A stretch of DNA of 45,590 nt from Bacteriovoracaceae bacterium (GCA_947467125.1 CANIGN010000001.1:1-45590), one strand, 5' to 3'. Shown: positions 2,560 through 30,479, counted from the stretch's first letter. Notes: generated from the sequence alone by a model not told the origin. Numbers and translations are program-made.

Positions 2560-5500
2560 TCAAAATGGGTTCACAAAGCGCAATAAAGAGCGACAACTGT
2601 CTTTTGCCTTGTTTAATAGGGCTTTTACGCGCTCTTTTTGCTTTATTTTCATCAAAGGAGCCACAAACTGGATACGATTGTACTCCAGTGCCCTCGAAAC
2701 AGCTTTCTTGCCCTTTGGTTGAAAGAGGTAATCTTCCACAAACATATTTTTGAAATTTAAATCTTTTTCAAAAACTTCATTTTTTACGATCAAAAAATGC
2801 AAAAACATGTCGTTCAACTCCATCAACTTCAAAAGAGCATTTGGAAATTTATAAAAAACTTTTCTAAAAGAAGCAGCGGTCTCTGTACGACCATTCACAA
2901 CTTTTACAAGATAAGAAAAATCCTTTTTTTGAGAAGAAATACATTTATCTAAAGCTAGACCTAATGCTTCTTTTACCTGTGGAAATCGTGCAAGAGCTGT
3001 ATCTTGATTTTTGGCAATCGAAAAAAGAGTGCCAAGATCACCACTCTGATCTGCAACCTCTATCAATCTTAAGAGCGCATTCGGATACTCGTTAAAAATC
3101 TTCGCAACGTCTTTTAAGTTGAGTATCGTCCAAACTTCTCGATCTTTTAAATCCTTCGCTTCATCAACAAGCCTCATCAATTCAATTTCAAAAAATGCTT
3201 TTGAAGAAGGATGAGCCTCAAGAGCCAACTGAGGAAATTGAGCCATATTATCGATGCGATCCTCAATACGACGACGATCACGCGAAATTTTTAAAATTTC
3301 TGTCTCTAAAAATTTAGGATTGATGTTTCTTTCGTAAAAAGCCACATCGAGATCAATTAATTTCTTAAAAGTTTGCATGTGCCCTGATTTTAGATCAAGA
3401 ACATCCTCGCCTTTTTCAAGGTATCCTTGGAAAAACCCCTCCAACATAGATCGCCATTCAGGATCTTTATTGAGATGTTTTTTTTGGGCCTGAATAAAAT
3501 CCCAACCCAAATGTGGAGCGCGCTCTTCTTCGAGAGCCCCCTTCACATCATTTCTCATCAGAAGCAGAGACTCCACCAAATGATCTTGAGAAAAAGCATC
3601 AGCAGCATTCATTCTTCCGATCAAAAAGAGTGGCCCGCTTCTTTGAAAAGAAAATGGATCAAAATCAGGCCCATAAATTTCAGAAGCGTATTTCAAGAAC
3701 GTTTTTGAAAATTGCTCAACAGAACTCGCCTCTGAATTCCTGAAATTAAAAGACAAAACTCTGTAGTGGCCAAGTGATTTAAGACGAACTCCGCTATTTC
3801 GAGCTATTTTCCAAACGGAATCCTTGTCACCGATCAGCTCATTCTTAATGAGGCGTAAAACGAGCTGCTCTTCGAGCTCTGCTTTTGACTTCTTTTTTTG
3901 ATCATAAGACGGGATAAGACGAAGCACTTTTGTTCCATCTTTTTTCATCCCATCATAAATCATCCCACCGCCGTACATCCCACTGCTATACAAACCCACA
4001 ATTTTCTCGGACATAGGATCGACAGGAGAAAAATCAACAGGCTTACCCACCACAACGTTCTCTACATACGCAGGAGCTTCTTGAACGACTTGTCCAGCCC
4101 CCACATTCATACTCACTGAATTTCCATCCGAAATAACCAAGTAATCATGAGGATGTCGCCTGTATTCTTCTTCGATAAACTCATCAAAAAAAGATTTTTT
4201 ACCAACGACTCCTTCTTTATCTTTCAGAATAATATCGCCTTTAATAGCGTGGCTCATGATATCCACCACACTCGAAATTTCTCCTGTTTTTTCATTTTTA
4301 ATGGGAGTAAGTCCCACATAGCCTTCCATTTTTCCATCGCCATTTTCGACGAAAATTGTTCGAGCTCCTTCAAGCGCATGCACTGCCCATCTCCTGGGAG
4401 TCAGTGAGCCACTTGTAGCACCTCCTACGCATTCACCTTTTTTGCGACCTGCGAAAAAGGCATGGAAAGCTCTGGGGCTTGGCTTAAAAAACAATTCCGT
4501 TCCTGCTTGATTCTTTAAGCGTAAAGTTGCTCGAGTCGCATCTTCATGAAGTTCATAAAAAAAGTATCGATTGGATTGTTCAAAGTGATTTCGAAAGTCC
4601 TTTTTTCCCTCTCTTACTTTTTCACTTTGTAAAACCCACGCGTCCAACTCTTCTTTATGAGTATCGTCGAGATGGTTACGTATTGCTGACATCTCAATTC
4701 CTGCAGCATGAAGATCTTGTATCTTGGTTACAAGACCAGGACTCATTCTTGGATCTGCTATTTTTTGAAATTCTTTCATGTTTTCAATCCCAGACTGATA
4801 AGACTTTACAAAGTCACGAAGAGTTTCGGAGTCAAAACTGAGATACTCCAACATCCGAGAAGGGATTTTAAATTTTTCGGCAATTCCAATTTTTTGAAAG
4901 TTTTTAAAATTTCCAAACTTTTCTAATTCAGTCGCAATAATATCCGCATCACCTGAGAAAAGTTTATCGCTCACTCTCTCATCATTCATTAAGTCATACG
5001 CAAGATCCCCAGACATAAAAGCCAATCTCTTACGCATATGATCTTCATTCTTTTTTAAAAGCAAAAGAGCTGTCCTGTTCATACCCATCTTTTGCTTGTA
5101 TTCAGCCTTTGCGGATCTTGAAAGAGAAGCAAACTGCTCGGGCCTCAAGAAGCCTGCCACATCACGAATTCGCTCTTGCTCGATTTCAAAATTTTCAAAT
5201 TCAGCAACAAATTTTTTGATCTCAATGTTTCTTTGTTCATCACTGAGTCCCAAAAGATATCCACTTCCTCGGGCAGCTTGAATTTTAATTCGATCAATCG
5301 CACCTAAACTTGCATCTCTTTTAATTTCTAGGCCAGTCCCCGAATGCTCCCCTTTGATGGAATAAATTTCTTTTTGCCAATCTGGATTTTTTTTCCAAGC
5401 CACTTCAGCAAATTCAGGAATTTTTTCTGCAAGATCTTTTATCTGCTCAAAAAATCTATCAAAGACGGGATCAAAAACAATTTCTTCTTTTAAATAAAGC

Positions 5501-5682
5501 TTTAAGACTATTCGATATTCTTCAATGGCCGACGGATCGCTAAGAAAATCATTTAAGGTTTCATAGCGAGCTGTAACAGCTTCAAGCTTTTCTAAAGATT
5601 GCGCATTCAGAAACGACAAAAAACCTAACGATAAAAGAAAAGAAATTCGGCGAATATAATGAAGCATTTTGGTTTTTGACAT
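2560..5682 (-). CDS. large hypothetical secreted protein (~1040 aa)
   Basis: The uninterrupted ORF runs 2560..5700. The likely start is ATG 5682 or 5667, giving MSKTKMLHYIRRISFLLSLGFLSFLNAQS, a typical signal peptide. I see no recognisable enzyme motifs. The flanks are helical-looking and the core is Gly/Val-rich. Confidence 0.7.
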   Translation of the reverse strand: MSKTKMLHYIRRISFLLSLGFLSFLNAQSLEKLEAVTARYETLNDFLSDPSAIEEYRIVLKLYLKEEIVFDPVFDRFFEQIKDLAEKIPEFAEVAWKKNPDWQKEIYSIKGEHSGTGLEIKRDASLGAIDRIKIQAARGSGYLLGLSDEQRNIEIKKFVAEFENFEIEQERIRDVAGFLRPEQFASLSRSAKAEYKQKMGMNRTALLLLKKNEDHMRKRLAFMSGDLAYDLMNDERVSDKLFSGDADIIATELEKFGNFKNFQKIGIAEKFKIPSRMLEYLSFDSETLRDFVKSYQSGIENMKEFQKIADPRMSPGLVTKIQDLHAAGIEMSAIRNHLDDTHKEELDAWVLQSEKVREGKKDFRNHFEQSNRYFFYELHEDATRATLRLKNQAGTELFFKPSPRAFHAFFAGRKKGECVGGATSGSLTPRRWAVHALEGARTIFVENGDGKMEGYVGLTPIKNEKTGEISSVVDIMSHAIKGDIILKDKEGVVGKKSFFDEFIEEEYRRHPHDYLVISDGNSVSMNVGAGQVVQEAPAYVENVVVGKPVDFSPVDPMSEKIVGLYSSGMYGGGMIYDGMKKDGTKVLRLIPSYDQKKKSKAELEEQLVLRLIKNELIGDKDSVWKIARNSGVRLKSLGHYRVLSFNFRNSEASSVEQFSKTFLKYASEIYGPDFDPFSFQRSGPLFLIGRMNAADAFSQDHLVESLLLMRNDVKGALEEERAPHLGWDFIQAQKKHLNKDPEWRSMLEGFFQGYLEKGEDVLDLKSGHMQTFKKLIDLDVAFYERNINPKFLETEILKISRDRRRIEDRIDNMAQFPQLALEAHPSSKAFFEIELMRLVDEAKDLKDREVWTILNLKDVAKIFNEYPNALLRLIEVADQSGDLGTLFSIAKNQDTALARFPQVKEALGLALDKCISSQKKDFSYLVKVVNGRTETAASFRKVFYKFPNALLKLMELNDMFLHFLIVKNEVFEKDLNFKNMFVEDYLFQPKGKKAVSRALEYNRIQFVAPLMKIKQKERVKALLNKAKDSCRSLLRFVNPF

Positions 5683-5756
5683 TTTTAAAGCAAAGATCAA
5701 ACGTCAGCTCTTTGACTTTTATATACCAAACAAAAACTCCGACAAAGCATATAGTT

Positions 5757-22397: not shown

Positions 22398-23219
22398 GTG
22401 GCAAAAGCTTTTCCGAAAGTAGCTCTTTTGCTCGCAGCAATTCTTTCTCAAGGCGCAAACAACTCTCTCCTGGCTCAATCTACATCCCAGTTAAATGAAG
22501 CAAACTGCATCCAGCACTTAAGAAACAACAATCTTCTATCCAAAGACCTTTATAAAAGATTAGGCCTTTCTAAAAACTCATCACAAGAAGATGTCAAAAA
22601 AGCTTTTCGCTTGCTTATCACAAAAGTACATGGAGACACTGGCTACGAAACGCCAGGAAACGACCCTGGACTAGAGCACAGAAATTTAAACGAAGCCTAC
22701 GAAACGTTAAATAACCCCGACAAACGGCGTAGTTACGACCTTCTCAATCCTGAGAGTGGACACAGAACGACTCAGCCCCAAACAAATACCTCAGAAGCTA
22801 GAAACAAAACACAGAGAGATAAAACTGAGAAAGACCAAGCTGAACGCAGCAAGAAAGAAAGCAAAGAAGAAAGAATTCGCAAAATTCTTCATCAATTTCC
22901 ATTCCAAAATCTTTCGAATGATCCTGCAATTAAAAAATCATTTCAAAAACATTCTCATACGATCGACTTATCATACGACCCCTTAGAAGGAATTCTTTTT
23001 TTTCTCGAAGGGTACAATAGAGACATGATGAGATTCAAAGGCCTGGAAGCACGACCATCCAATCAGGAAGGACAGAGAGAGATCCTCAAAGCAATTGTCA
23101 GAAAATATCTCCCTGAGCTTCTCGAAAAAAAATCAATCTACGACTTAGATATTTTAAGTGAAAAATTAGAATTGCTCGATCCCGAACTTTCAGAGGCTCT
23201 AAGGCTACCCTTAAATTAA
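22398..23219 (+). CDS. signal-peptide J-domain-like protein with HGD in place of HPD
   Basis: After a GTG start, MAKAFPKVALLLAAILSQGANNSLLAQ looks like a signal peptide. The J-domain reads DLYKRLGLSKNSSQEDVKKAFRLLITKVHGDTG....LNEAYETLNNPDKRRSYD. The middle of the protein is charged and low-complexity. Confidence 0.7.
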   Translation: MAKAFPKVALLLAAILSQGANNSLLAQSTSQLNEANCIQHLRNNNLLSKDLYKRLGLSKNSSQEDVKKAFRLLITKVHGDTGYETPGNDPGLEHRNLNEAYETLNNPDKRRSYDLLNPESGHRTTQPQTNTSEARNKTQRDKTEKDQAERSKKESKEERIRKILHQFPFQNLSNDPAIKKSFQKHSHTIDLSYDPLEGILFFLEGYNRDMMRFKGLEARPSNQEGQREILKAIVRKYLPELLEKKSIYDLDILSEKLELLDPELSEALRLPLN

Positions 23220-24439
23220 GCGCTTAAAGTAAGCGCCTCACGAGCCTTAAACCAACTGGTTGAATAACCTTTGTCAGCATACTTTTCAGCAAAAGAAGTT
23301 ACCTTAAGAGGCTCAAAAAAAGTATCCAACATGACTGCCAAGCGATCGCTCATCTTACCGCGATCAGCGAGTGATTTTTCTGCAGCATTTCCGTGAGGAG
23401 AATGAGGGCAAGCAGAAGGATGAAAAGTCATTGTCCCTTCTCGTAAAACACTTTTACGTGCGCCATAATTTACGTTGCTAAAAAACATCATCTCATCACT
23501 GTCCACGTTAAAGTGTGCATAAGGAGCGGCCACGTCGCGAGGATCCCACCCCTCAGGCTGACCCACAAAAGAGCAAATCGAAAATCCAAAATAAGGTGCT
23601 TGGCCAGACTGAAAAGTTTGGTGAGCAGGCGGAGCGGAGTGAATCGCTCGAGCAATTCCATGATGTTTTGAAATATCGAATGTATAGGGATACAAAGCAC
23701 CTTCCCATCCACAGACGTCAAAGGGATGATGTCCCATGACCATTTCCGTAAGATGACCACCATTGTGTTGAACGTAAACCAAGAACTCTCCTTCTTGATC
23801 AACGGGCGCAGTCAATTCTGGCAAAGACACTTCCGTTTCAACAATAGGAGCGACCATCAAAGCCTGACCGCTTGTGTTCATATAGTGAGGAGGCCATTCA
23901 ATTAAAAACTTAGACTCTACGGTCAACAACCAAAGCTTTTCACTTTTTAAATCAATCCGATAAGTCGTTCCCTTAGGGACAATCACATAATGATTTTTTC
24001 GAAATGGTAATTCACCATACTCTGAAGAAAGTACCCCTTCACCTTCTTGAACGAAAAAGATTTCATGTCCCTCTCCATTTCGAAAGAATTTATTTTGAGG
24101 AAAACTTTCTTTAACCTTGATGACTCCAATTTTTGTAGAAGGTCCCCACATCAAACAGTGTCGTGCAGAGAGAGCATTTCCTTCATAAGGAATGTCGCCT
24201 GTGTGAATCAAATACGGGTGAAGAGTTTTATCATCACTTTCTTGAGGAATAAGGTGAAAAGAAGATACTTTTGGAGCCGCTTTCACCTCAGTCGGATACT
24301 TACGCACATGCATTTTTCGAGACCACGGTCCACTAAAGCCAAAAGATCCATGAATTTCTTCGAGAGAAAGAACACCAGGAATATAATAAAACTCTGTGTG
24401 AGGAGTTGTAGGGAGGGTCCCTCTTTTTGCGATAATCAT
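23216..24439 (-). CDS. hmgA: homogentisate 1,2-dioxygenase (short bacterial type)
   Basis: The cupin-like core reads EIFFVQEGEGVLSSEYGELPFRKNHYVIVPKGTTYRI, and the C-terminal block reads FNVDSDEMMFF...TFHPSACPHSPHG. The ORF is open to 24532, but ATG 24439 (MIIAKRGTLP) leaves a sensible divergent intergenic region. The stop overlaps the stop of the convergent J-like gene. Confidence 0.75.
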   Translation of the reverse strand: MIIAKRGTLPTTPHTEFYYIPGVLSLEEIHGSFGFSGPWSRKMHVRKYPTEVKAAPKVSSFHLIPQESDDKTLHPYLIHTGDIPYEGNALSARHCLMWGPSTKIGVIKVKESFPQNKFFRNGEGHEIFFVQEGEGVLSSEYGELPFRKNHYVIVPKGTTYRIDLKSEKLWLLTVESKFLIEWPPHYMNTSGQALMVAPIVETEVSLPELTAPVDQEGEFLVYVQHNGGHLTEMVMGHHPFDVCGWEGALYPYTFDISKHHGIARAIHSAPPAHQTFQSGQAPYFGFSICSFVGQPEGWDPRDVAAPYAHFNVDSDEMMFFSNVNYGARKSVLREGTMTFHPSACPHSPHGNAAEKSLADRGKMSDRLAVMLDTFFEPLKVTSFAEKYADKGYSTSWFKAREALTLSA

Positions 24440-24564
24440 GGAGGCGAGATTAAGGCGCCGACAACATTCTGCCAAGCCCCTTTCTAAGCACAAAAATGTT
24501 TTTTTCATCTTTTGTGAACCAAAACTTAACAATCAAGTCCCTCAAAAAAGCTTAAAATCATTAC

Positions 24565-27471
24565 ATGTTGTTGTGTTTTATACTGCTTGCTTTTACACCC
24601 TTTTTTAATCTACAGGCGCAAACAACGACTCAAGAAACATTAAGTCTCAGCTACCAAGACTCTGAAACAACTAACACTCAAAAACAAGCCCGCTTTACAA
24701 TCAGCCTTAAATCAGAAAAAAACCTTCCACTTTCCCTTAAAGGAAAAACAGTCGTTTTATTCAAATCATCTTCATGCTCGGGAGATCAAATAGAAAAACA
24801 AGAAAACACTCCAACCGATACCCTTAATTTTCATATTGCAAAAAGATATTTTGAAGCAAATAAGCTCTATTATTTAAGCGCCGGAATCACGACCAAAGAC
24901 AATGTGACACAATTAAATAAAACAACAACATGCAGTAAGTCTTTAGTTTTTACAACAAACTCTTATTCTTCTCTTGTAGACCCCAAACCCTCCGCTGAAA
25001 ACACCCCCCCCATTGACTCATCCCTGAAAATTGAACTGATCGAAGCAGAAACCCCTGGAGTACCCTCAATACGATTACGAAACATGATCAACACTCAAGA
25101 AAGAATTCACGTGTTCACTACTCCTGATTGTACAGGTTCTGAATTGACAAAAAAAACCGTCGCCATCAACAACCTCAAATCATCAAAAGACGTTCACCTA
25201 TCTGCCAATGATTATTCTGAAATTAAAACATACACCCTCTCTGCAAAGACGGATAACTCGTCATGCTCAAATTCCATCCAATATAAAAAAGTTCCTGTTG
25301 TGGCTCCTAATGTTACATTCTTGATGAACGGATCAAACACTGGGAACACAAGTCAAATAAAATTTGATCTTCTGAACCTTCAAAAAAAAGACGTGATTAC
25401 GATTTATCAAAACGATACTACCTGCACAAAAGATTCGATCAAACAAGTTAGTGCCGAAGACAATAGCTTGTTTGTGACTGCAAGCCTTCTTTCAGGTGAT
25501 CAATCGCCGAATGCCACTTACAGTTTTTATGCACAAGCAAAAAGAGGAGATAGCTCTGGACAATGCGTTGGCCCCCTTAACTATACATTCAACAAAACCC
25601 CCCCAACTATTGCGACTCTTACACTTGAAGGAAATGCCAAGAGCTTTAACAGGACACCTCAATTCATAATTACTAATCTTGAAGTTGGAAACAGTGCTTA
25701 TCTTATTTTGGGATCAAACTGTGTAGGAAATTCTATGGCAGACATTAAAAAAGTGGATAGCTCAACAACTCCTTTATCGATTGGAATTAAAGAGCGAGAT
25801 TTTTTAAATGTCGACAAGCTCTATATGTTCTCTGCAAAAGTCATTGACTCCATGGGGAATTCTTCATGTAGTACAAGTGTAGAGTATACTCTTATTACTC
25901 AAATACCAGACCCTACGATTCAACTTTTAGTCAATGATCAAACAACAGCTAAAACCTTGGCAAATCCAAGCTTTAGAATTGGAAATATCTCCCCTGGAGA
26001 CAAAGTAGAAATTTACAAAGACAAAATCTGTAGCAAAATAGCTTCTGAAGAAAAAACCATTAGCAAAAATCAAACAACAATTGACATACAAATCACATCC
26101 CTAAATCAGGCAGAAAAAAACACTTATTACGCCAAAGTTTTTAGCAACGCTGTTCAAAACACTAAATGTAGCTCAAACGGAGTGCCTTATGAATACAAAC
26201 CCCCTGCACCTGTCATTGCAAGTGATCCTATTTATGTAAGCAGCACAAGCACAAATGGCGGCACTCCTCCTCTACCAGACACTAAAATCGATGATGAAAA
26301 CAAAAGAATATTACAAATGGGATTAAATTTAGAATCTCAAGTCGTCACAAATTTCTATGTAACGGAGTTGGGGTATAACGCAAAAGAAATTGAGGCAAGA
26401 ACAGCTGCGATCAGAGACACACTCGACAGTGCCGAGTACAAAAAAGATCCAAAACCATGGCTCAATACAGATACAGACCAACTCGTGCCTTATGTTAAGA
26501 AAAACGATAACACTTATATAAGCATCGGGGGACACACAGTTAATAGAATCTTATACAATCTACAAACTCAAAATCCTCAAAGTTATCAAAGTTTAACAAC
26601 TTATTCACGAATTGTTCGTGATTATACTGAATTAAAACTCACAGACCAAGAAATAGAAAACGACATGATTAAAAGTGGTTTTGTTTGGTTACATGATCTT
26701 ACTCAAGAGCAAGTAATTATACGGAACCAAAAAAGCTATACGAACTCTAACTCTCCAAGCACAACAACTGCAAATATAGCAAAAGCTTATGAAATTGTTT
26801 CAACCGTTAATTTTTGCGACACGTCAGTTAAAGATTTAATCTTGGATACTTCAGACCCTAGCATGGGAACCTTTTACTGCGTTGATCCGTTCAACCCTTC
26901 AAAACTATACACAAATACATTTAGCGATATCATCAGCAAGAAAACGAAAGACATGAAACCAGACCCTTATTTAAGCATTGTTTATTATCTTAAAAATGGA
27001 AGGAACCCTTACGATTCCACCAAAAAAGATATTAGCATGGCTCCTTTTAATAGACTTGGAATTTTAAGTTTTCCACCTGATCGTGAAGAACTAGAAAATA
27101 AAGTTATAGAGTATCTAGATAATTTAACGAGCAAGCCAGAATATCTTTTTCAAGACAGCAAGTGGGCACTCTATTTAAAGTACAGGCTTCAAAGAGACTT
27201 CACAATGAATTACACAAAGATCAATCTCGCCCTTGATTCTTTCAGTAAAAACCCTACTTACAATAGCGAATTTGGGAAAAACATTTGTCGCGCTTATTTA
27301 ATCACCCAAGACTTGGAAACATACAAAATTGCCAAAAATAATCCAAACTGGCTTCCTGGTTACAAATGGAATTCAATCAATGATTTACCAGACCAGCCGC
27401 CAACATGGTGCTTAACCTACAACAACAGTATTAACTCTAATAAATCTATAATAAGTACCGTTAACCAATAA
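24565..27471 (+). CDS. secreted protein, paralog A: 5 Cys-paired Ig-like repeats plus a degenerate ParB/Srx-like (ParBc_2-type) C-terminal domain
   Basis: An in-frame TAA at 24553 fixes the ATG at 24565. The signal peptide is MLLCFILLAFTPFFNLQA|Q. The ~100-aa repeats each carry 2 Cys (e.g. PSFRIGNISPGDKVEIYKDKIC...YYAKV....KCSS..VPYEY). The C-terminal ~390 aa aligns with paralog B (LVPYV, RIVRDY, SGFVWLHD, KPDPY, KWALYLKYRL, NICRAY, NPNWLPG, WC). Confidence 0.75.
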   Translation: MLLCFILLAFTPFFNLQAQTTTQETLSLSYQDSETTNTQKQARFTISLKSEKNLPLSLKGKTVVLFKSSSCSGDQIEKQENTPTDTLNFHIAKRYFEANKLYYLSAGITTKDNVTQLNKTTTCSKSLVFTTNSYSSLVDPKPSAENTPPIDSSLKIELIEAETPGVPSIRLRNMINTQERIHVFTTPDCTGSELTKKTVAINNLKSSKDVHLSANDYSEIKTYTLSAKTDNSSCSNSIQYKKVPVVAPNVTFLMNGSNTGNTSQIKFDLLNLQKKDVITIYQNDTTCTKDSIKQVSAEDNSLFVTASLLSGDQSPNATYSFYAQAKRGDSSGQCVGPLNYTFNKTPPTIATLTLEGNAKSFNRTPQFIITNLEVGNSAYLILGSNCVGNSMADIKKVDSSTTPLSIGIKERDFLNVDKLYMFSAKVIDSMGNSSCSTSVEYTLITQIPDPTIQLLVNDQTTAKTLANPSFRIGNISPGDKVEIYKDKICSKIASEEKTISKNQTTIDIQITSLNQAEKNTYYAKVFSNAVQNTKCSSNGVPYEYKPPAPVIASDPIYVSSTSTNGGTPPLPDTKIDDENKRILQMGLNLESQVVTNFYVTELGYNAKEIEARTAAIRDTLDSAEYKKDPKPWLNTDTDQLVPYVKKNDNTYISIGGHTVNRILYNLQTQNPQSYQSLTTYSRIVRDYTELKLTDQEIENDMIKSGFVWLHDLTQEQVIIRNQKSYTNSNSPSTTTANIAKAYEIVSTVNFCDTSVKDLILDTSDPSMGTFYCVDPFNPSKLYTNTFSDIISKKTKDMKPDPYLSIVYYLKNGRNPYDSTKKDISMAPFNRLGILSFPPDREELENKVIEYLDNLTSKPEYLFQDSKWALYLKYRLQRDFTMNYTKINLALDSFSKNPTYNSEFGKNICRAYLITQDLETYKIAKNNPNWLPGYKWNSINDLPDQPPTWCLTYNNSINSNKSIISTVNQ

Positions 27472-27533
27472 TAAAAAATTTTCTTAACTAAAAATTAATC
27501 AATTAAAATTTAAAACCTCTTAAAATAAGAAGA

Positions 27534-30479
27534 GTGAAGCGCATTAAGAAAATTAAGTGTTTGATTTTAATTTTTTTTGGAATTACGTGCACCTCAACAC
27601 TGAAAGCCCAGATAACCTTAAACCAGATAACCTTAAAATACCCTGATTCTGAAGCATCAAAAACAAAGGAACAAAAGAAGCCCCAATTCAATATTTCTGG
27701 ATTCAAAATAGGCGACTCTGTCGCTTTAATTAAGGGAGCAAACTGTATAGGTGATGAAATAGAACAAAAAACCGCAACAAGCGAAATAGTTGAGTTTAAT
27801 ATTAAATATACAGATTTAAACAAAATATTCAATCAAGACAATTACACCTATTACTTGAGTTCCAAAAGAAACGGATCTGATTGCAGCAACAATTTAAACT
27901 TCAAGATTACAAACAGAGAGGCGCTTACCGAGACAAACATTCTACCACGCTCAATTAAAATTGAGGAATTCATAGAAGCAAATGCACCCAATACACCTTC
28001 ATTTAAAGTCACGCAGCTACAAGATGGAGATGAAATAAATCTTTACAAAAGCGAACGAAGCGATCCTTGTAAAGGAAGCATTGTAGACACCTCAACTGCA
28101 GAAAAAGGTATAGCTATCTTCATTCGCCCAAACCTTCAACCAGGCGGAGACATTTACATCTCTGCAGGCTTAATAAACGCAAACCCACCCGCTTGCACAA
28201 ACGCTATTTTTAAAAAAATTCCAGTTATAGACCCACCCTTCAACTCGAAACCTCTTATGGAATTTTACCCAGGGGAAAACTCAAAACGACCTTCCTTTAA
28301 AGTGATACGCCTAACAGGACAAAACGAGGTTTCCCTTTACAAGAGCCCCGACAAAAACAAAGCCTGCCAGGGAATGCCTATCGCTACAAAGACTACAAAC
28401 GAAAATTATATTATATTCAATGAGCCCACAGAAATTCCTGCAGGTAAAAAATATTATTTTTCTGCAAAAATTAAAAATTCAGAACCTGGATCTAGCAACT
28501 GCTTATCAAGCATTATTGACTTTACTCGCACCGGACCAAATGTAACCCTTTACATAAACCACGGTGTACCCAAAGATAATGTTACATCACCAGAATTTTA
28601 CATCTTAGGGGTTGAGCAAGGTTACTCAGCTGAAATCTTTAAAGATGCTGCCTGCACAGGAACACCTCTTAAGAAGATTTCCGCAACCGATAACAAAATT
28701 TTAATTAACTTGCCTATTAGTGGCCAAAAAACCCACAAATATTACGCTCGTGGCATTGACGATGATGGCACCCCAGGAAAATGCACAAATGGAGTTGAGT
28801 ATACTTTAGACACGACGACCTCTGACTTAAAACTTAGATTGAGCGACGGAGAAAAATCTAGAGGATCAGAACCACATCCTAAATTTAAAGTAAGCGGAAC
28901 GTTTACCAAAGGTGATATATTAGAACTTTTTAAAAGTTCAAAATGCACAGGAACAAAAGTCATCCACACTCTTAGAATTGAAAAACCCTCTAATTCTGAA
29001 ATAACTTCTCCCTCAGAACGAGAGCCACTTGTTGGAGATTCAACATTTACCTTTTCCGTTAAATCAACAGACAAATCTGGCAATAAATCTTGTAGTAATG
29101 ATATTCAATATACTCTTGATACAGCAAAACCCTATCCTCAAATAAAACTCAAAGGGAATCAAAAAACAGACAGTAACGCTAGTCCTAGCTTTATCGTCAC
29201 AAACATTTCACCCGGAGATAAAGTAACAGTCTACAGTGATTCGACTTGCAAACGTAAAGCTTCAAAAGAAATAATTGTTCCTGCACAAAAGTCAAGCATT
29301 GAAATCAAGATTGATCCTCTTCAGAAAGAAGACAGTTACTCTTTTTGGGTTAACGCTATAGATTCAGATGGCACAATCGGCACATGCAGCAGAGATGGAG
29401 CAACGTATACCTTCAATAAACCGAACAGTAGAGGAACAGGTGGAGGAGGAACAGGTGGAGGAGGAACAGGTGGAGGAGGATCAACCAGCGGAAAAGTCGA
29501 TTTAATCAAAACACTAATTCAAAAAGAAAACGATCGCGTAGAAAAGATTGGCATTGATGAGCTTTATGTTAAAGACTTACACCCAACGCAAATCACTTAC
29601 GGCAATGTCGAGAATCAAATCAGAAGAGCAACCGCTGTAAAAAAAATTTACTGTGATAAAAATGTCGATGACTGGAAAAATGAACACCTTATCCCCTATG
29701 TCATAAGTCCCGAAGGCATAAAATATTTCTTTGATGGTCACCATACCAACAAAATCCTTAGCGACATCTACGGACAAGCGGCAACAACAAAGGTAAGACT
29801 GATTCGAGACTATCGTAAGTTAGGTTTTAACGACGAAGAATTCAAAAAAGACATGACTAAGCACGGTTGGGTTTGGCTTCACGATACCCGCATAGAAAAA
29901 CCTGTAGAAAATACGTTTAATCCCAACATATTATTTAATGTCCTTTTTGATAAAATCAAAGTGATCAGTAATGTCACCAATCTAAAGCCAGACCCTTTTA
30001 GAGATATCGCCTACCTTTTACAATATGGCATAAACCCAAAAGATGCTTTTACTAAATTCGATCATGGTTATAAAATCAAAAAAGATCTAGAATCTTCAGC
30101 ATACAATCCCCCAAGTCTTCCCTTTTATAGTGACAAGGAATACATAAAAAAAATTATTAATTCAGCCCAAGGCTTATTTAACGGACATAAATGGGGTCTT
30201 TACATAAGGTACAGACTAAAAAAAGATTATGGTGTCACATTTGCACAGTTAGCAGCAAGCGCTTCAGGCAACAACTTTAATAACTTTAGCGGCTGTCGAA
30301 ATTTTAAAGAAAATGAAAAGGTTGATGTTGACGATTTTTTTATGCTCAACCTGTGCAGAGCTCACAGAATCGCAAGAGACTCTAAAACGAGATCTATTTA
30401 CGACCACAATCCAGCTTGGTTGCCAGGGCTTCTGCAAAACACCCACGTTCCTGATTGGTGCGATGACTATCAAAATTAA
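27534..30479 (+). CDS. secreted protein, paralog B: 6 Cys-paired Ig-like repeats, (GTGGG)3 linker, ParB/Srx-like (ParBc_2-type) C-terminal domain with intact motifs
   Basis: After a GTG start, the signal peptide is MKRIKKIKCLILIFFGITCTSTLKA|Q. The repeats follow P.F.V....GD.V.(L/V)Y.....C......Y.F......D..G....CS....Y.(L/F)(D/N). The C-domain has DLHPTQITYG (29577-29591), LIPYV..PEGIKYFFDGHHTNKIL (DGHH at 29733-29744), RLIRDY, HGWVWLHD, KPDPFRDIAY and KWGLYIRYRL. Confidence 0.75.
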   Translation: MKRIKKIKCLILIFFGITCTSTLKAQITLNQITLKYPDSEASKTKEQKKPQFNISGFKIGDSVALIKGANCIGDEIEQKTATSEIVEFNIKYTDLNKIFNQDNYTYYLSSKRNGSDCSNNLNFKITNREALTETNILPRSIKIEEFIEANAPNTPSFKVTQLQDGDEINLYKSERSDPCKGSIVDTSTAEKGIAIFIRPNLQPGGDIYISAGLINANPPACTNAIFKKIPVIDPPFNSKPLMEFYPGENSKRPSFKVIRLTGQNEVSLYKSPDKNKACQGMPIATKTTNENYIIFNEPTEIPAGKKYYFSAKIKNSEPGSSNCLSSIIDFTRTGPNVTLYINHGVPKDNVTSPEFYILGVEQGYSAEIFKDAACTGTPLKKISATDNKILINLPISGQKTHKYYARGIDDDGTPGKCTNGVEYTLDTTTSDLKLRLSDGEKSRGSEPHPKFKVSGTFTKGDILELFKSSKCTGTKVIHTLRIEKPSNSEITSPSEREPLVGDSTFTFSVKSTDKSGNKSCSNDIQYTLDTAKPYPQIKLKGNQKTDSNASPSFIVTNISPGDKVTVYSDSTCKRKASKEIIVPAQKSSIEIKIDPLQKEDSYSFWVNAIDSDGTIGTCSRDGATYTFNKPNSRGTGGGGTGGGGTGGGGSTSGKVDLIKTLIQKENDRVEKIGIDELYVKDLHPTQITYGNVENQIRRATAVKKIYCDKNVDDWKNEHLIPYVISPEGIKYFFDGHHTNKILSDIYGQAATTKVRLIRDYRKLGFNDEEFKKDMTKHGWVWLHDTRIEKPVENTFNPNILFNVLFDKIKVISNVTNLKPDPFRDIAYLLQYGINPKDAFTKFDHGYKIKKDLESSAYNPPSLPFYSDKEYIKKIINSAQGLFNGHKWGLYIRYRLKKDYGVTFAQLAASASGNNFNNFSGCRNFKENEKVDVDDFFMLNLCRAHRIARDSKTRSIYDHNPAWLPGLLQNTHVPDWCDDYQN
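27608..27637 (+). repeat. perfect 15-nt x2 tandem duplication (ccagataaccttaaa) encoding QITLN/QITLK
   Basis: The two units at 27608-27622 and 27623-27637 are identical. They lie just after the predicted signal-peptide cleavage site of paralog B. Confidence 0.9.
29433..29477 (+). repeat. perfect 15-nt x3 tandem repeat (ggaacaggtggagga) encoding the (GTGGG)3 linker
   Basis: Three identical units lie at 29433-29447, 29448-29462 and 29463-29477, followed by gga. The repeat sits exactly between the last Ig-like repeat and the C-terminal domain of paralog B. Confidence 0.95.

Follow-up and report, generated by a model that had tools for sequence, protein, structure and literature searches.

What would two large proteins do with a ParB-like domain held at the end of a long stalk, apparently outside the cell? 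The question is posed by a pair of genes in a 45,590-nucleotide stretch of DNA from a Bacteriovoracaceae bacterium (GCA_947467125.1 CANIGN010000001.1:1-45590; hereafter the window, with positions counted from its first nucleotide). A sequence-only reading of this stretch had drawn attention to two adjacent genes on the same strand, here called A and B, encoding proteins of 968 and 981 amino acids (aa) that share one architecture: a signal peptide, a stalk of Ig-like repeats and a C-terminal head related to ParB and sulfiredoxin (Srx). Both open reading frames (ORFs) lie exactly where that reading had placed them, as same-strand neighbours in a freshwater member of the Bdellovibrionota, and their products are paralogues that align almost end to end (BLASTP 26% identity, E 6e-72, with additional off-register alignments as expected of internal repeats). 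We found that the head of B is an intact member of the Pfam family ParBc_2 (PF08857), that profile comparisons make the head of A a degenerate homologue, and that both genes are under purifying selection. The composite explanation that we tentatively favour, giving it as a whole not quite an even chance, is that B may act on a phosphate-bearing ligand outside the cytoplasm and that A may be its non-catalytic derivative.

One intact and one degenerate ParBc_2 head

The head of B (330 aa, basic with an isoelectric point (pI) of 8.8, four Cys) matches PF08857 over residues 678-830 of the protein (E 1.5e-16, 61.4 bits against a gathering score of 23.6) and reaches 93 bits with a local profile built from 41 standalone ParBc_2 members. 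Aligned with these 41 proteins, it is collinear with the entire ~200-aa standalone protein, plus three insertions, and it retains the motifs xHPTQ, D-HH, W-YL-D and DP(Y/F)R, the W-x-x-(F/Y)-R block and the C-terminal LPG. Five residues served as the family-invariant set: P and Q of PTQ, the first His of HH, the Arg of DPYR and the Pro before the central strand. All five are retained in B and in its orthologue in the related loci L004 and L007, and H736 of B alone is unchanged in all of the 47-53 sequences aligned. The head of B is a bona fide ParBc_2 domain, as the sequence-only reading had recognized from its motifs.

The ParB/Srx fold of this head was confirmed at the level of a predicted structure. 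AlphaFold (AF2), given a 53-row alignment consisting mostly of ParBc_2 sequences, on which the model depends, returned a mean predicted local distance difference test (pLDDT) of 86.8 and a predicted template modelling score (pTM) of 0.87; a model from the single sequence (pLDDT 33.6) was discarded. Foldseek placed Atu1540, a standalone ParBc_2 protein (PDB 2HWJ), first for this model (E 9.6e-8, probability 1.0, template modelling (TM) score 0.79 normalized to the target), followed by sulfiredoxin (probability 0.97-0.99, TM score to target 0.46-0.61, ~94 residues), with further matches to ParB-CDP (6sdk), SbnI, Noc, KorB and PadC. A PDB sequence search with the same head retrieved 2hwj at E 3e-4. 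In the model the D-HH motif sits at a strand end and the start of helix 85-98, that is, at the strand-to-helix junction where ParB/Srx enzymes place their phosphate-binding motif.

As a separate observation, B residues 946-977 (window 30369-30464, IARDSKTRSIYDHNPAWLPGLLQNTHVPDWC) gave a weak match (E 0.24) to 1tpm, the finger (fibronectin type I) domain of tissue plasminogen activator. We judged this likeness of the last ~32 residues to be chance.

The head of A (396 aa, acidic with pI 5.7, four Cys) gave no match in Pfam (E<=1) or NCBIfam and did not reach the PF08857 gathering score, and a PDB sequence search with it returned nothing meaningful. Profile methods nevertheless connect it to the family: hhalign of a profile of four A-type heads (the head of A and those of its orthologues) against standalone ParBc_2, with B excluded, gave a probability of 98.0% (E 2.3e-13, 194 columns), and the head of A scored 19.3 bits (E 1.3e-5) against a local profile of standalone members. 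On these comparisons it is a true but divergent ParBc_2 homologue, and no typical member. The two Pfam families named in the sequence-only reading thus fared unequally, PF08857 being matched by B and not by A, and PF02195 by neither protein (E<=1); a helix-turn-helix (HTH) domain was likewise absent from the Pfam matches of both.

The blocks that had been listed as common to both heads are all present in each: RIVRDY, G(F/W)VWLHD, KPDP(Y/F), KW(A/G)LY, N(I/L)CRA, WLPG and WC. The motifs LHPTQ, DGHH and DPFR, assigned to B, occur in B and not in A. In their place A-type heads have lost three of the five family-invariant residues and kept the His and the Pro before the central strand, and the substitute for PTQ recurs among A-type orthologues as FYVTE, FFVTQ and FYVSE. 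An insertion of ~55 aa with its own Cys pair is found in all A-type heads and in neither B nor standalone ParBc_2. The replacements are common to all A-type orthologues with small variations, which suggests a new constraint rather than decay. Since A has replaced the family's signature residues, a nuclease or nucleotide-handling role could apply to B at most. The sequence-only reading had understated this side of the pair: the head of A has no Pfam match, its replacements are conserved, and the A-type occurs alone in two lineages, as described below.

Compared with a standalone ParBc_2 protein such as Atu1540, the head of B has the same motifs, collinearity and fold, and most near relatives of the family appear to be exported as B does. 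What differs is that the head is enlarged by its three insertions to 330 aa, has two putative disulfides, is borne on a ~600-aa Ig-like stalk and has a degenerate paralogue. In Atu1540 itself the motif starts as early as residue ~11, and a signal peptide is absent.

Stalks, linkers and export

The count of five ~100-aa repeats in A and six in B, each with exactly two Cys, was upheld on the Cys register. A hidden Markov model (HMM) of the 11 repeats recovered six units in B at 76-95 bits each and five in A at 75-97 bits, with shuffled proteins scoring at most 8.7 bits. In cross-validation, an HMM built from A repeats alone recovered 6/6 repeats of B (iE 4e-6 to 4e-16) and one built from B repeats alone recovered 5/5 of A; no other ORF matched the stalk-repeat HMM, either in the window or in any relative locus retrieved. 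The Cys pairs fall at 71/123, 189/234, 287/334, 386/435 and 489/535 in A, and at 71/117, 179/221, 278/323, 374/417, 471/520 and 572/618 in B. These two Cys are the sole invariant columns among 30 repeats from six proteins, and every mature protein has an even number of Cys (14-16, at strictly paired positions). From this pattern we infer one disulfide per repeat, formed outside the cytoplasm.

The description of the stalk as Ig-like is on less firm ground. The repeat consensus P-F-(I/V)...G-(V/I)-(L/I)Y...Y-F-A...D-G...Y(T) gave matches to Pfam PF19077 (Big_13) in 4/30 family repeats (best E 2.3e-6), but the best repeat in the window (B residues 449-530, 22.4 bits, E 1.8e-4) fell below the Pfam gathering score of 27 bits. 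Big_15, Big_5 and PKD-like models matched weakly. No significant match came from profile searches of the PDB with either 11 or 30 repeats; the non-significant ones from one of these searches (E 0.65-2.6) were all to β-sandwich domains (FN3, nanobody). The Ig-like label is therefore best taken as a provisional one, the least secure part of the architecture. Bacterial surface proteins with Big_13 repeats share the consensus seen in these four repeats and a variable repeat number; the repeats of A and B differ in having an invariant Cys pair and being mostly sub-threshold, and A and B themselves in having a ParBc_2 head and no known adhesin anchor or secretion signal.

Between stalk and head of B, Tandem Repeats Finder (TRF) detected a perfect tandem repeat of 15 bp (GAGGAACAGGTGGAG x 3.3, at 29431-29480) that encodes the (GTGGG)n linker. 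A strain variant (P0004, locus L001) is shorter by one 5-aa linker unit (976 versus 981 aa); the length of the linker thus varies between strains, a polymorphism probably due to slippage. The stalk would be elongated, with the head presented on a flexible linker. A second perfect tandem repeat (15 bp x 2, CCAGATAACCTTAAA, window 27608-27637) encodes a duplicated QITLNQITL just past the predicted cleavage site of B.

Signal peptides were called by a hydrophobicity heuristic together with reading by eye, and both of the proposed cleavage sites are present, L-Q-A|Q in A and L-K-A|Q in B. The N-terminus of B has a basic n-region and a hydrophobic core without a lipobox; that of A has no basic residue. 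A hydrophobic N-terminus is found in 8/8 family proteins and L-x-(A/S) before Q or N in 7/8, the eighth being a shorter call in L007 that lacks most of the hydrophobic stretch. Within the window the heuristic is positive for only 8/32 large ORFs. Sec export of A and B is, on these features, a well-supported prediction. We recognized no membrane or surface anchor, lipobox, β-barrel, sorting signal or secretion-system signal in either protein.

These observations bear on whether A and B might simply be cytoplasmic ParB-like proteins handling DNA or nucleoside triphosphates (NTPs), with N-termini that merely look like signal peptides. Canonical ParB/Srx proteins are cytoplasmic, and the missing basic residue in A would fit; yet the hydrophobic N-terminus is kept in all orthologues with L-x-(A/S)|Q in seven of eight calls, the 14-16 Cys occupy strictly paired, invariant positions on an Ig-like stalk, neither PF02195 nor HTH is present, and most of the nearest ParBc_2 relatives appear exported. 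We consider this reading essentially excluded, with hardly any probability left to it.

The sequence-only reading had regarded an exported ParB/Srx domain as unusual, a premise that fits the superfamily at large but finds no support in the ParBc_2 branch. The heuristic assigns a signal-peptide-like N-terminus to at least 40 of the 55 nearest relatives (73%), which are mostly standalone ParBc_2 proteins, and inspection by eye adds several more; a minority begin at the motif itself, as Atu1540 does. Export thus appears to be the norm for the ParBc_2 branch and the exported domain is not new. It has also been seen outside the cell experimentally: a Pfam08857 lipoprotein was reported from the exoproteome of Pseudomonas fluorescens SBW25 under phosphate starvation (Lidbury et al. 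2016, PMC5082522), where the authors speculated on a UshA-like role. That protein shares the exported ParBc_2 domain with A and B and differs in being a phosphate-regulated lipoprotein without a stalk; by analogy, it suggests a role of the family in handling extracellular phosphate compounds.

Two further kinds of relative deserve mention. A metagenomic protein (P0058, 507 aa, exported) contains three tandem ParBc_2 modules, two degenerate N-terminal half-modules (PTR/DGHR and PSQ/DKHE) followed by one intact (PTQ/DGHH/DDPYR/LPGY). Like A and B it combines intact and degenerate modules, and unlike them it does so in a single chain without an Ig-like stalk, an independent precedent for the pairing. 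Seven relatives (P0026, P0034, P0047, P0049, P0051, P0059 and P0067) look eukaryotic, with long low-complexity N-terminal regions and signal-peptide or transmembrane segments, and one eukaryotic-looking relative has a C-terminal transmembrane anchor, which suggests that exported ParBc_2 domains also occur in protists or algae.

Table 1 Features of genes A and B, in window coordinates
Feature	Position	Strand	Basis
Gene A, 968-aa exported (putative) stalked protein with degenerate ParBc_2 head (A-type)	24565..27471	+	ORF; orthologues
A signal-peptide-like N-terminus, MLLCFILLAFTPFFNLQA|Q, residues 1-18	24565..24618	+	Sequence; hydrophobicity maximum 3.15; heuristic
A stalk, 5 Ig-like (Big_13-like) repeats, residues 21-546, one Cys pair each	24625..26202	+	Repeat HMM
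A linker, Pro/Ser/Thr-rich, residues 547-572	26203..26280	+	Sequence; between last repeat and head alignment
A head, degenerate ParBc_2 homologue, residues 573-968	26281..27468	+	hhalign; local profile
FYVTE, A residues 597-601, replaces family (L/I)xPTQ	26353..26367	+	Alignments
GGHT, A residues 655-658, replaces D(G/H/R)HH; first His alone kept	26527..26538	+	Alignments
Extra Cys pair C751...C772 (FCDTS...FYC) of the A-type-specific insertion	26815..26880	+	A1 alignment
DPYL, A residues 800-803, replaces DPYR (invariant Arg lost)	26962..26973	+	Alignments
A-B spacer, 62 bp, AT-rich	27472..27533	+	Sequence; terminator scan
Gene B, 981-aa exported (putative) stalked protein with intact ParBc_2 head (B-type)	27534..30479	+	ORF; Pfam ParBc_2 61.4 bits; orthologues
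B signal peptide (predicted), MKRIKKIKCLILIFFGITCTSTLKA|Q, residues 1-25	27534..27608	+	Sequence; hydrophobicity 2.81
B stalk, 6 Ig-like (Big_13-like) repeats, residues 28-629, one Cys pair each	27615..29420	+	Repeat HMM
B linker, Gly-rich (GTGGG)n	29421..29486	+	TRF
B head, full-length ParBc_2 (ParB/Srx fold)	29487..30476	+	Alignment, AF2, Foldseek
LHPTQ, B residues 682-686, family motif 1	29577..29591	+	Alignments; P, Q invariant in standalone family
DGHH, B residues 734-737, family motif 2	29733..29744	+	Alignments
DPFR, B residues 820-823 (family motif DDPYR; invariant Arg kept)	29991..30002	+	Alignments
WLPG, B residues 962-965 (family C-terminal LPGY motif)	30417..30428	+	Alignments

A conserved slot in a small freshwater clade

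An exhaustive HMMER search with the head of B against 1.84 billion representative proteins gave 58 hits. The stalked form accounts for four of them (B's own cluster, P0021, P0022 and the A-type fragment P0042); the other 54 have no stalk and are mostly standalone ParBc_2 proteins of 200-300 aa, with a few longer ones (among them P0058 and some eukaryote-like proteins). A scan of one genome per GTDB species gave four loci, all from Bdellovibrionota/Bacteriovoracaceae or from unclassified lake metagenome-assembled genomes (MAGs; Lake Mendota, ELA), and a few freshwater Bdellovibrionota MAGs were the only source of the stalked form. The stalk-plus-head architecture was, as had been supposed, uncharacterized in the literature and databases searched. 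A word-index protein search returned no hit for the head of B or for the repeat profile and three standalone proteins for a 47-sequence head profile, and it also missed the 100%-identical cluster representative P0004; these negatives are a property of the word index and carry no biological meaning. Two scans of metagenome contigs (A1, A5) confirmed no relative, although L007 comes from a JGI sample, and are uninformative.

A-type orthologues were found in L001, L003, L004, L005, L007 and L008, and as the only gene of the pair, with four repeats, in L002 and L006; the B orthologue has 989 aa in L004 and L007, and L001 has P0004, the 976-aa strain variant of B. Both genes thus occur in the lineage of the window and in the L004/L007 lineage, and the A-type is the form present in every lineage. 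A distance tree of heads recovers the stalked family as a monophyletic group (bootstrap 1.0). Within it every A-type head, those of the single-gene loci too, falls into a single clade (1.0) with a long stem, and the branches of the B-types are short. From this tree the ancestor would have been B-like, the duplication older than these lineages and the divergence of A fast, with B subsequently disappearing from the locus in two lineages.

When the window is compared with L004, identity is 51-58% for A and B and 80-93% for their neighbours. The rate of nonsynonymous substitution (dN) is 0.33-0.41 for A and B versus 0.045-0.13 for neighbouring genes, that is, ~3-8 times faster, and its ratio to the synonymous rate (dN/dS) is ~0.15-0.24, a rough value because dS is saturated and one well below 1. 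Both genes are under purifying selection.

Rapid change of this kind, in proteins whose repeat number varies from four to six across the family and whose linker length is polymorphic, is typical of surface-interaction proteins, and it raises the possibility that both are non-enzymatic adhesins or recognition rods whose heads would be ParBc_2 folds turned to the binding of a ligand on prey surfaces or in the environment, with the conserved residues of B serving in binding alone. Repeats of the Big_13 type are characteristic of surface proteins in bacteria, many of the blocks common to A and B (RIVRDY, KW-LY-YRL, N-CRA, WC) are clade-specific, and the A-type, with its degenerate pocket, is in every lineage and alone in L002 and L006. 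The lack of any recognized cell anchor (lipobox, β-barrel or sorting signal) speaks against such rods. So does the conservation in B of every family-invariant residue across ~50% sequence divergence, which suggests that the ancestral pocket is still used, and variability is no greater in the heads than in the stalks (window versus L004). We regard this alternative as unlikely on balance, though it is the one to be taken most seriously.

A divergent HgmA-like gene lies on one side of the pair and a convergent GNAT-pyrD-nth-engB block on the other, and the slot between them is the same in every relative locus found. Conserved housekeeping genes surround the pair, none of them linked to predation, and the locus is syntenic and vertically inherited, with a composition resembling its surroundings. 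Because the spacer between A and B is only 62 bp long and the terminator scan found no plus-strand terminator in it, the two genes are likely co-transcribed as a two-gene operon. A promoter scan gave background levels (17 found versus 15.8 expected), and reading the sequence upstream of A revealed no Pho-box-like repeat, no Pho box being defined for this phylum. Rfam and tRNA scans of the window gave no match.

Large size, export, several domains and a variable C-terminal head are reminiscent of polymorphic toxins, and ParB-like domains are known from conflict systems, so an interbacterial effector pair needing a cognate immunity protein has to be considered. As the sequence-only reading had observed, no small immunity-like ORF lies beside the pair (window ORFs and flanks), and the flanks are conserved in all relatives. 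PADLOC, PHROGs and NCBIfam models gave no match to A or B, which by these tests are not anti-phage defence or phage proteins, and Pfam shows no toxin-delivery domain; the syntenic, vertically inherited locus with its unexceptional composition also tells against a toxin. This reading is very improbable and we treat it, too, as essentially excluded.

Several observations concern the start of A and the genes around it. An in-frame ATG lies 68 bp upstream of the A start (window 24497-24564), with a TAA at 24553-24555 cutting it off from A. A related strain (P0042, L003) has a sense codon there, and its called ORF runs upstream (MFFSS...KSLKKAYNHY-MLLCF...). The ATG at 24565, common to the strains, is the likelier true start of A. 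The divergent neighbour (window 23216-24532, minus strand) encodes a weakly homogentisate-1,2-dioxygenase-like cupin (HgmA_N E 4e-9, HgmA_C E 1e-5). With 438 aa it is longer than its orthologues (407-423 aa), so that the start called for it (TTG at 24532) probably lies too far upstream, and the real intergenic region upstream of A would then be longer than the apparent 32 bp.

Further away, a gene at window 22398-23219 (plus strand) encodes a 273-aa DnaJ-domain protein (Pfam E 1.6e-13) with a signal-peptide-like N-terminus (MAKAFPKVALLLAAILSQGANNSLLAQ), in which the HPD tripeptide of the J domain reads HGD; it looks exported and possibly inactive. This gene is present in L001 and L006 and is not at this position in L007 nor, by ORF sizes, in L004 and L002. 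At window 2560-5700 (minus strand) a 1046-aa ORF begins with a signal-peptide-like N-terminus ending FLNA|Q, a cleavage-site style as in A and B; it matches neither Pfam nor the stalk-repeat HMM and appears to be an orphan large exported protein.

What the two heads may bind or cleave

Within the ParB/Srx superfamily, the head of B has the same core fold as ParB CTPase, sulfiredoxin, SbnI/SerK, Noc, KorB and PadC (Foldseek). ParB, Srx and SbnI bind nucleotide phosphates in the pocket of this fold. These enzymes are cytoplasmic and NTP-dependent, whereas A and B are probably exported and have neither an HTH nor another DNA-binding domain; compared with canonical ParB/ParBc CTPase clamps, PF02195, GERRxR and HTH/parS-binding or dimerization domains were all undetected in A and B. 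At the position that the fold match makes equivalent to GERRxR, B reads DGHH-T and A reads GGHT, in place of the GERRxR of ParB or the GGCHR of Srx.

In the composite explanation that we tentatively favour, the products of A and B would be exported by Sec and fold outside the cytoplasm into elongated, disulfide-stabilized rods of five or six Big_13-like β-sandwich repeats, each continued by a flexible linker and a distal, enlarged ParBc_2 head with two disulfides. B would bind or hydrolyse a phosphate-bearing extracytoplasmic ligand, which might be a nucleic acid, a nucleotide or another organophosphate. NTP-driven chemistry would be unlikely outside the cytoplasm, with hydrolysis or plain binding more plausible. 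That B binds or cleaves a ligand of this class is probable, by analogy, because of the pocket of ParB, Srx and SbnI and the family's link to the phosphate-starvation exoproteome. A would be an old duplicate that diverged fast, lost its pocket residues, gained a disulfide-bonded insertion and turned acidic. It is most likely a non-catalytic derivative that serves in binding or scaffolding, able to act alone and perhaps also partnering B.

Several points count against this explanation. The periplasm and the medium lack NTPs, so that the NTP chemistry of ParB, Srx and SbnI is not simply transferable, and DGHH-T of B lacks the Arg of GERRxR or GGCHR. The literature yielded no biochemical characterization of any PF08857 member, and the 'nuclease' in the Pfam name is a guess. 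L002 and L006 have the A-type without B at the syntenic slot, and the core function in the clade may therefore not need the conserved pocket. The absence of a recognized anchor, the reliance of the signal-peptide calls on the heuristic, the dependence of the fold model on ParBc_2 sequences and the roughness of the dN/dS values weigh in the same direction.

A more specific alternative is that B, and perhaps A, is a secreted DNase that degrades prey or environmental DNA. Bdellovibrio bacteriovorus has several redundant secreted DNases bearing signal peptides (PMC7925074, PMC3593177), and A and B come from a lineage of the same phylum (Bdellovibrionota/Bacteriovoracaceae). Bd0934, Bd3507, Bd1244 and Bd1934 act outside the predator cytoplasm, as B would, and a functional analogy is possible; they have no Ig-like stalk, a ParB-like domain goes unmentioned in the two studies, and we claim no relation. 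The basic head of B, the nuclease hint in the Pfam name and the secretion of a Pfam08857 protein under phosphate starvation (PMC5082522) would agree with a DNase. Nuclease activity of ParBc_2 has, however, never been shown, and no nuclease motif or other nuclease family beyond the PF08857 name was matched in A or B (Pfam, NCBIfam). A would be excluded from activity if the family motifs are required, and predatory behaviour of this uncultured lineage is an assumption. The locus lies among housekeeping genes. A DNase is, on this evidence, improbable. Two items in the literature do not bear on the question: 'ParBc2' is there the ParB of Burkholderia chromosome 2, irrelevant to PF08857, and PMC5172544 concerns PF02195 and is likewise irrelevant. 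Three standalone ParBc_2 genes proved solitary in their genomic contexts, with no recurrent partner, and so offered no hint of function.

Beyond the composite explanation for A and B lies a bolder proposal, to which we give a decidedly small chance. ParBc_2 as a whole might be an extracytoplasmic branch of the ParB/Srx fold that works without NTPs, with an activity new for the fold (for example, a metal-dependent phosphodiesterase or phosphate-ligand capture). In this Bdellovibrionota clade the intact head of B and a neofunctionalized, dead head of A, on disulfide-locked stalks of ~20 nm, would then form an enzyme-pseudoenzyme pair capturing nucleic acid from prey or the environment and processing it.

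The ParBc_2 family, its fold and its export were already known or could readily be inferred. What appears to be new is that the head is enlarged and joined to an Ig-like stalk locked by putative disulfides, and that an intact and a degenerate gene are conserved as a pair, all of this confined to a small uncultured clade; the rarity lies in the stalk fusion and in the pairing. This would come as a mild surprise to a specialist on ParB/Srx proteins and opens no long-standing question. ParB/Srx proteins have been studied as cytoplasmic, nucleotide-driven switches and enzymes, and in the ParBc_2 branch most proteins appear exported and no activity is known. In this respect the A/B pair amounts to a natural experiment, offering one scaffold with the pocket intact in B and replaced in A, both kept under selection, and thus a convenient entry point to the function of an exported ParB-like fold. 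Should B not be a phosphoesterase or nuclease, the pair would represent a lineage-specific family of surface or periplasmic proteins. If B is one, it would represent a new enzyme class for microbial phosphorus scavenging and possibly for bacterial predation.

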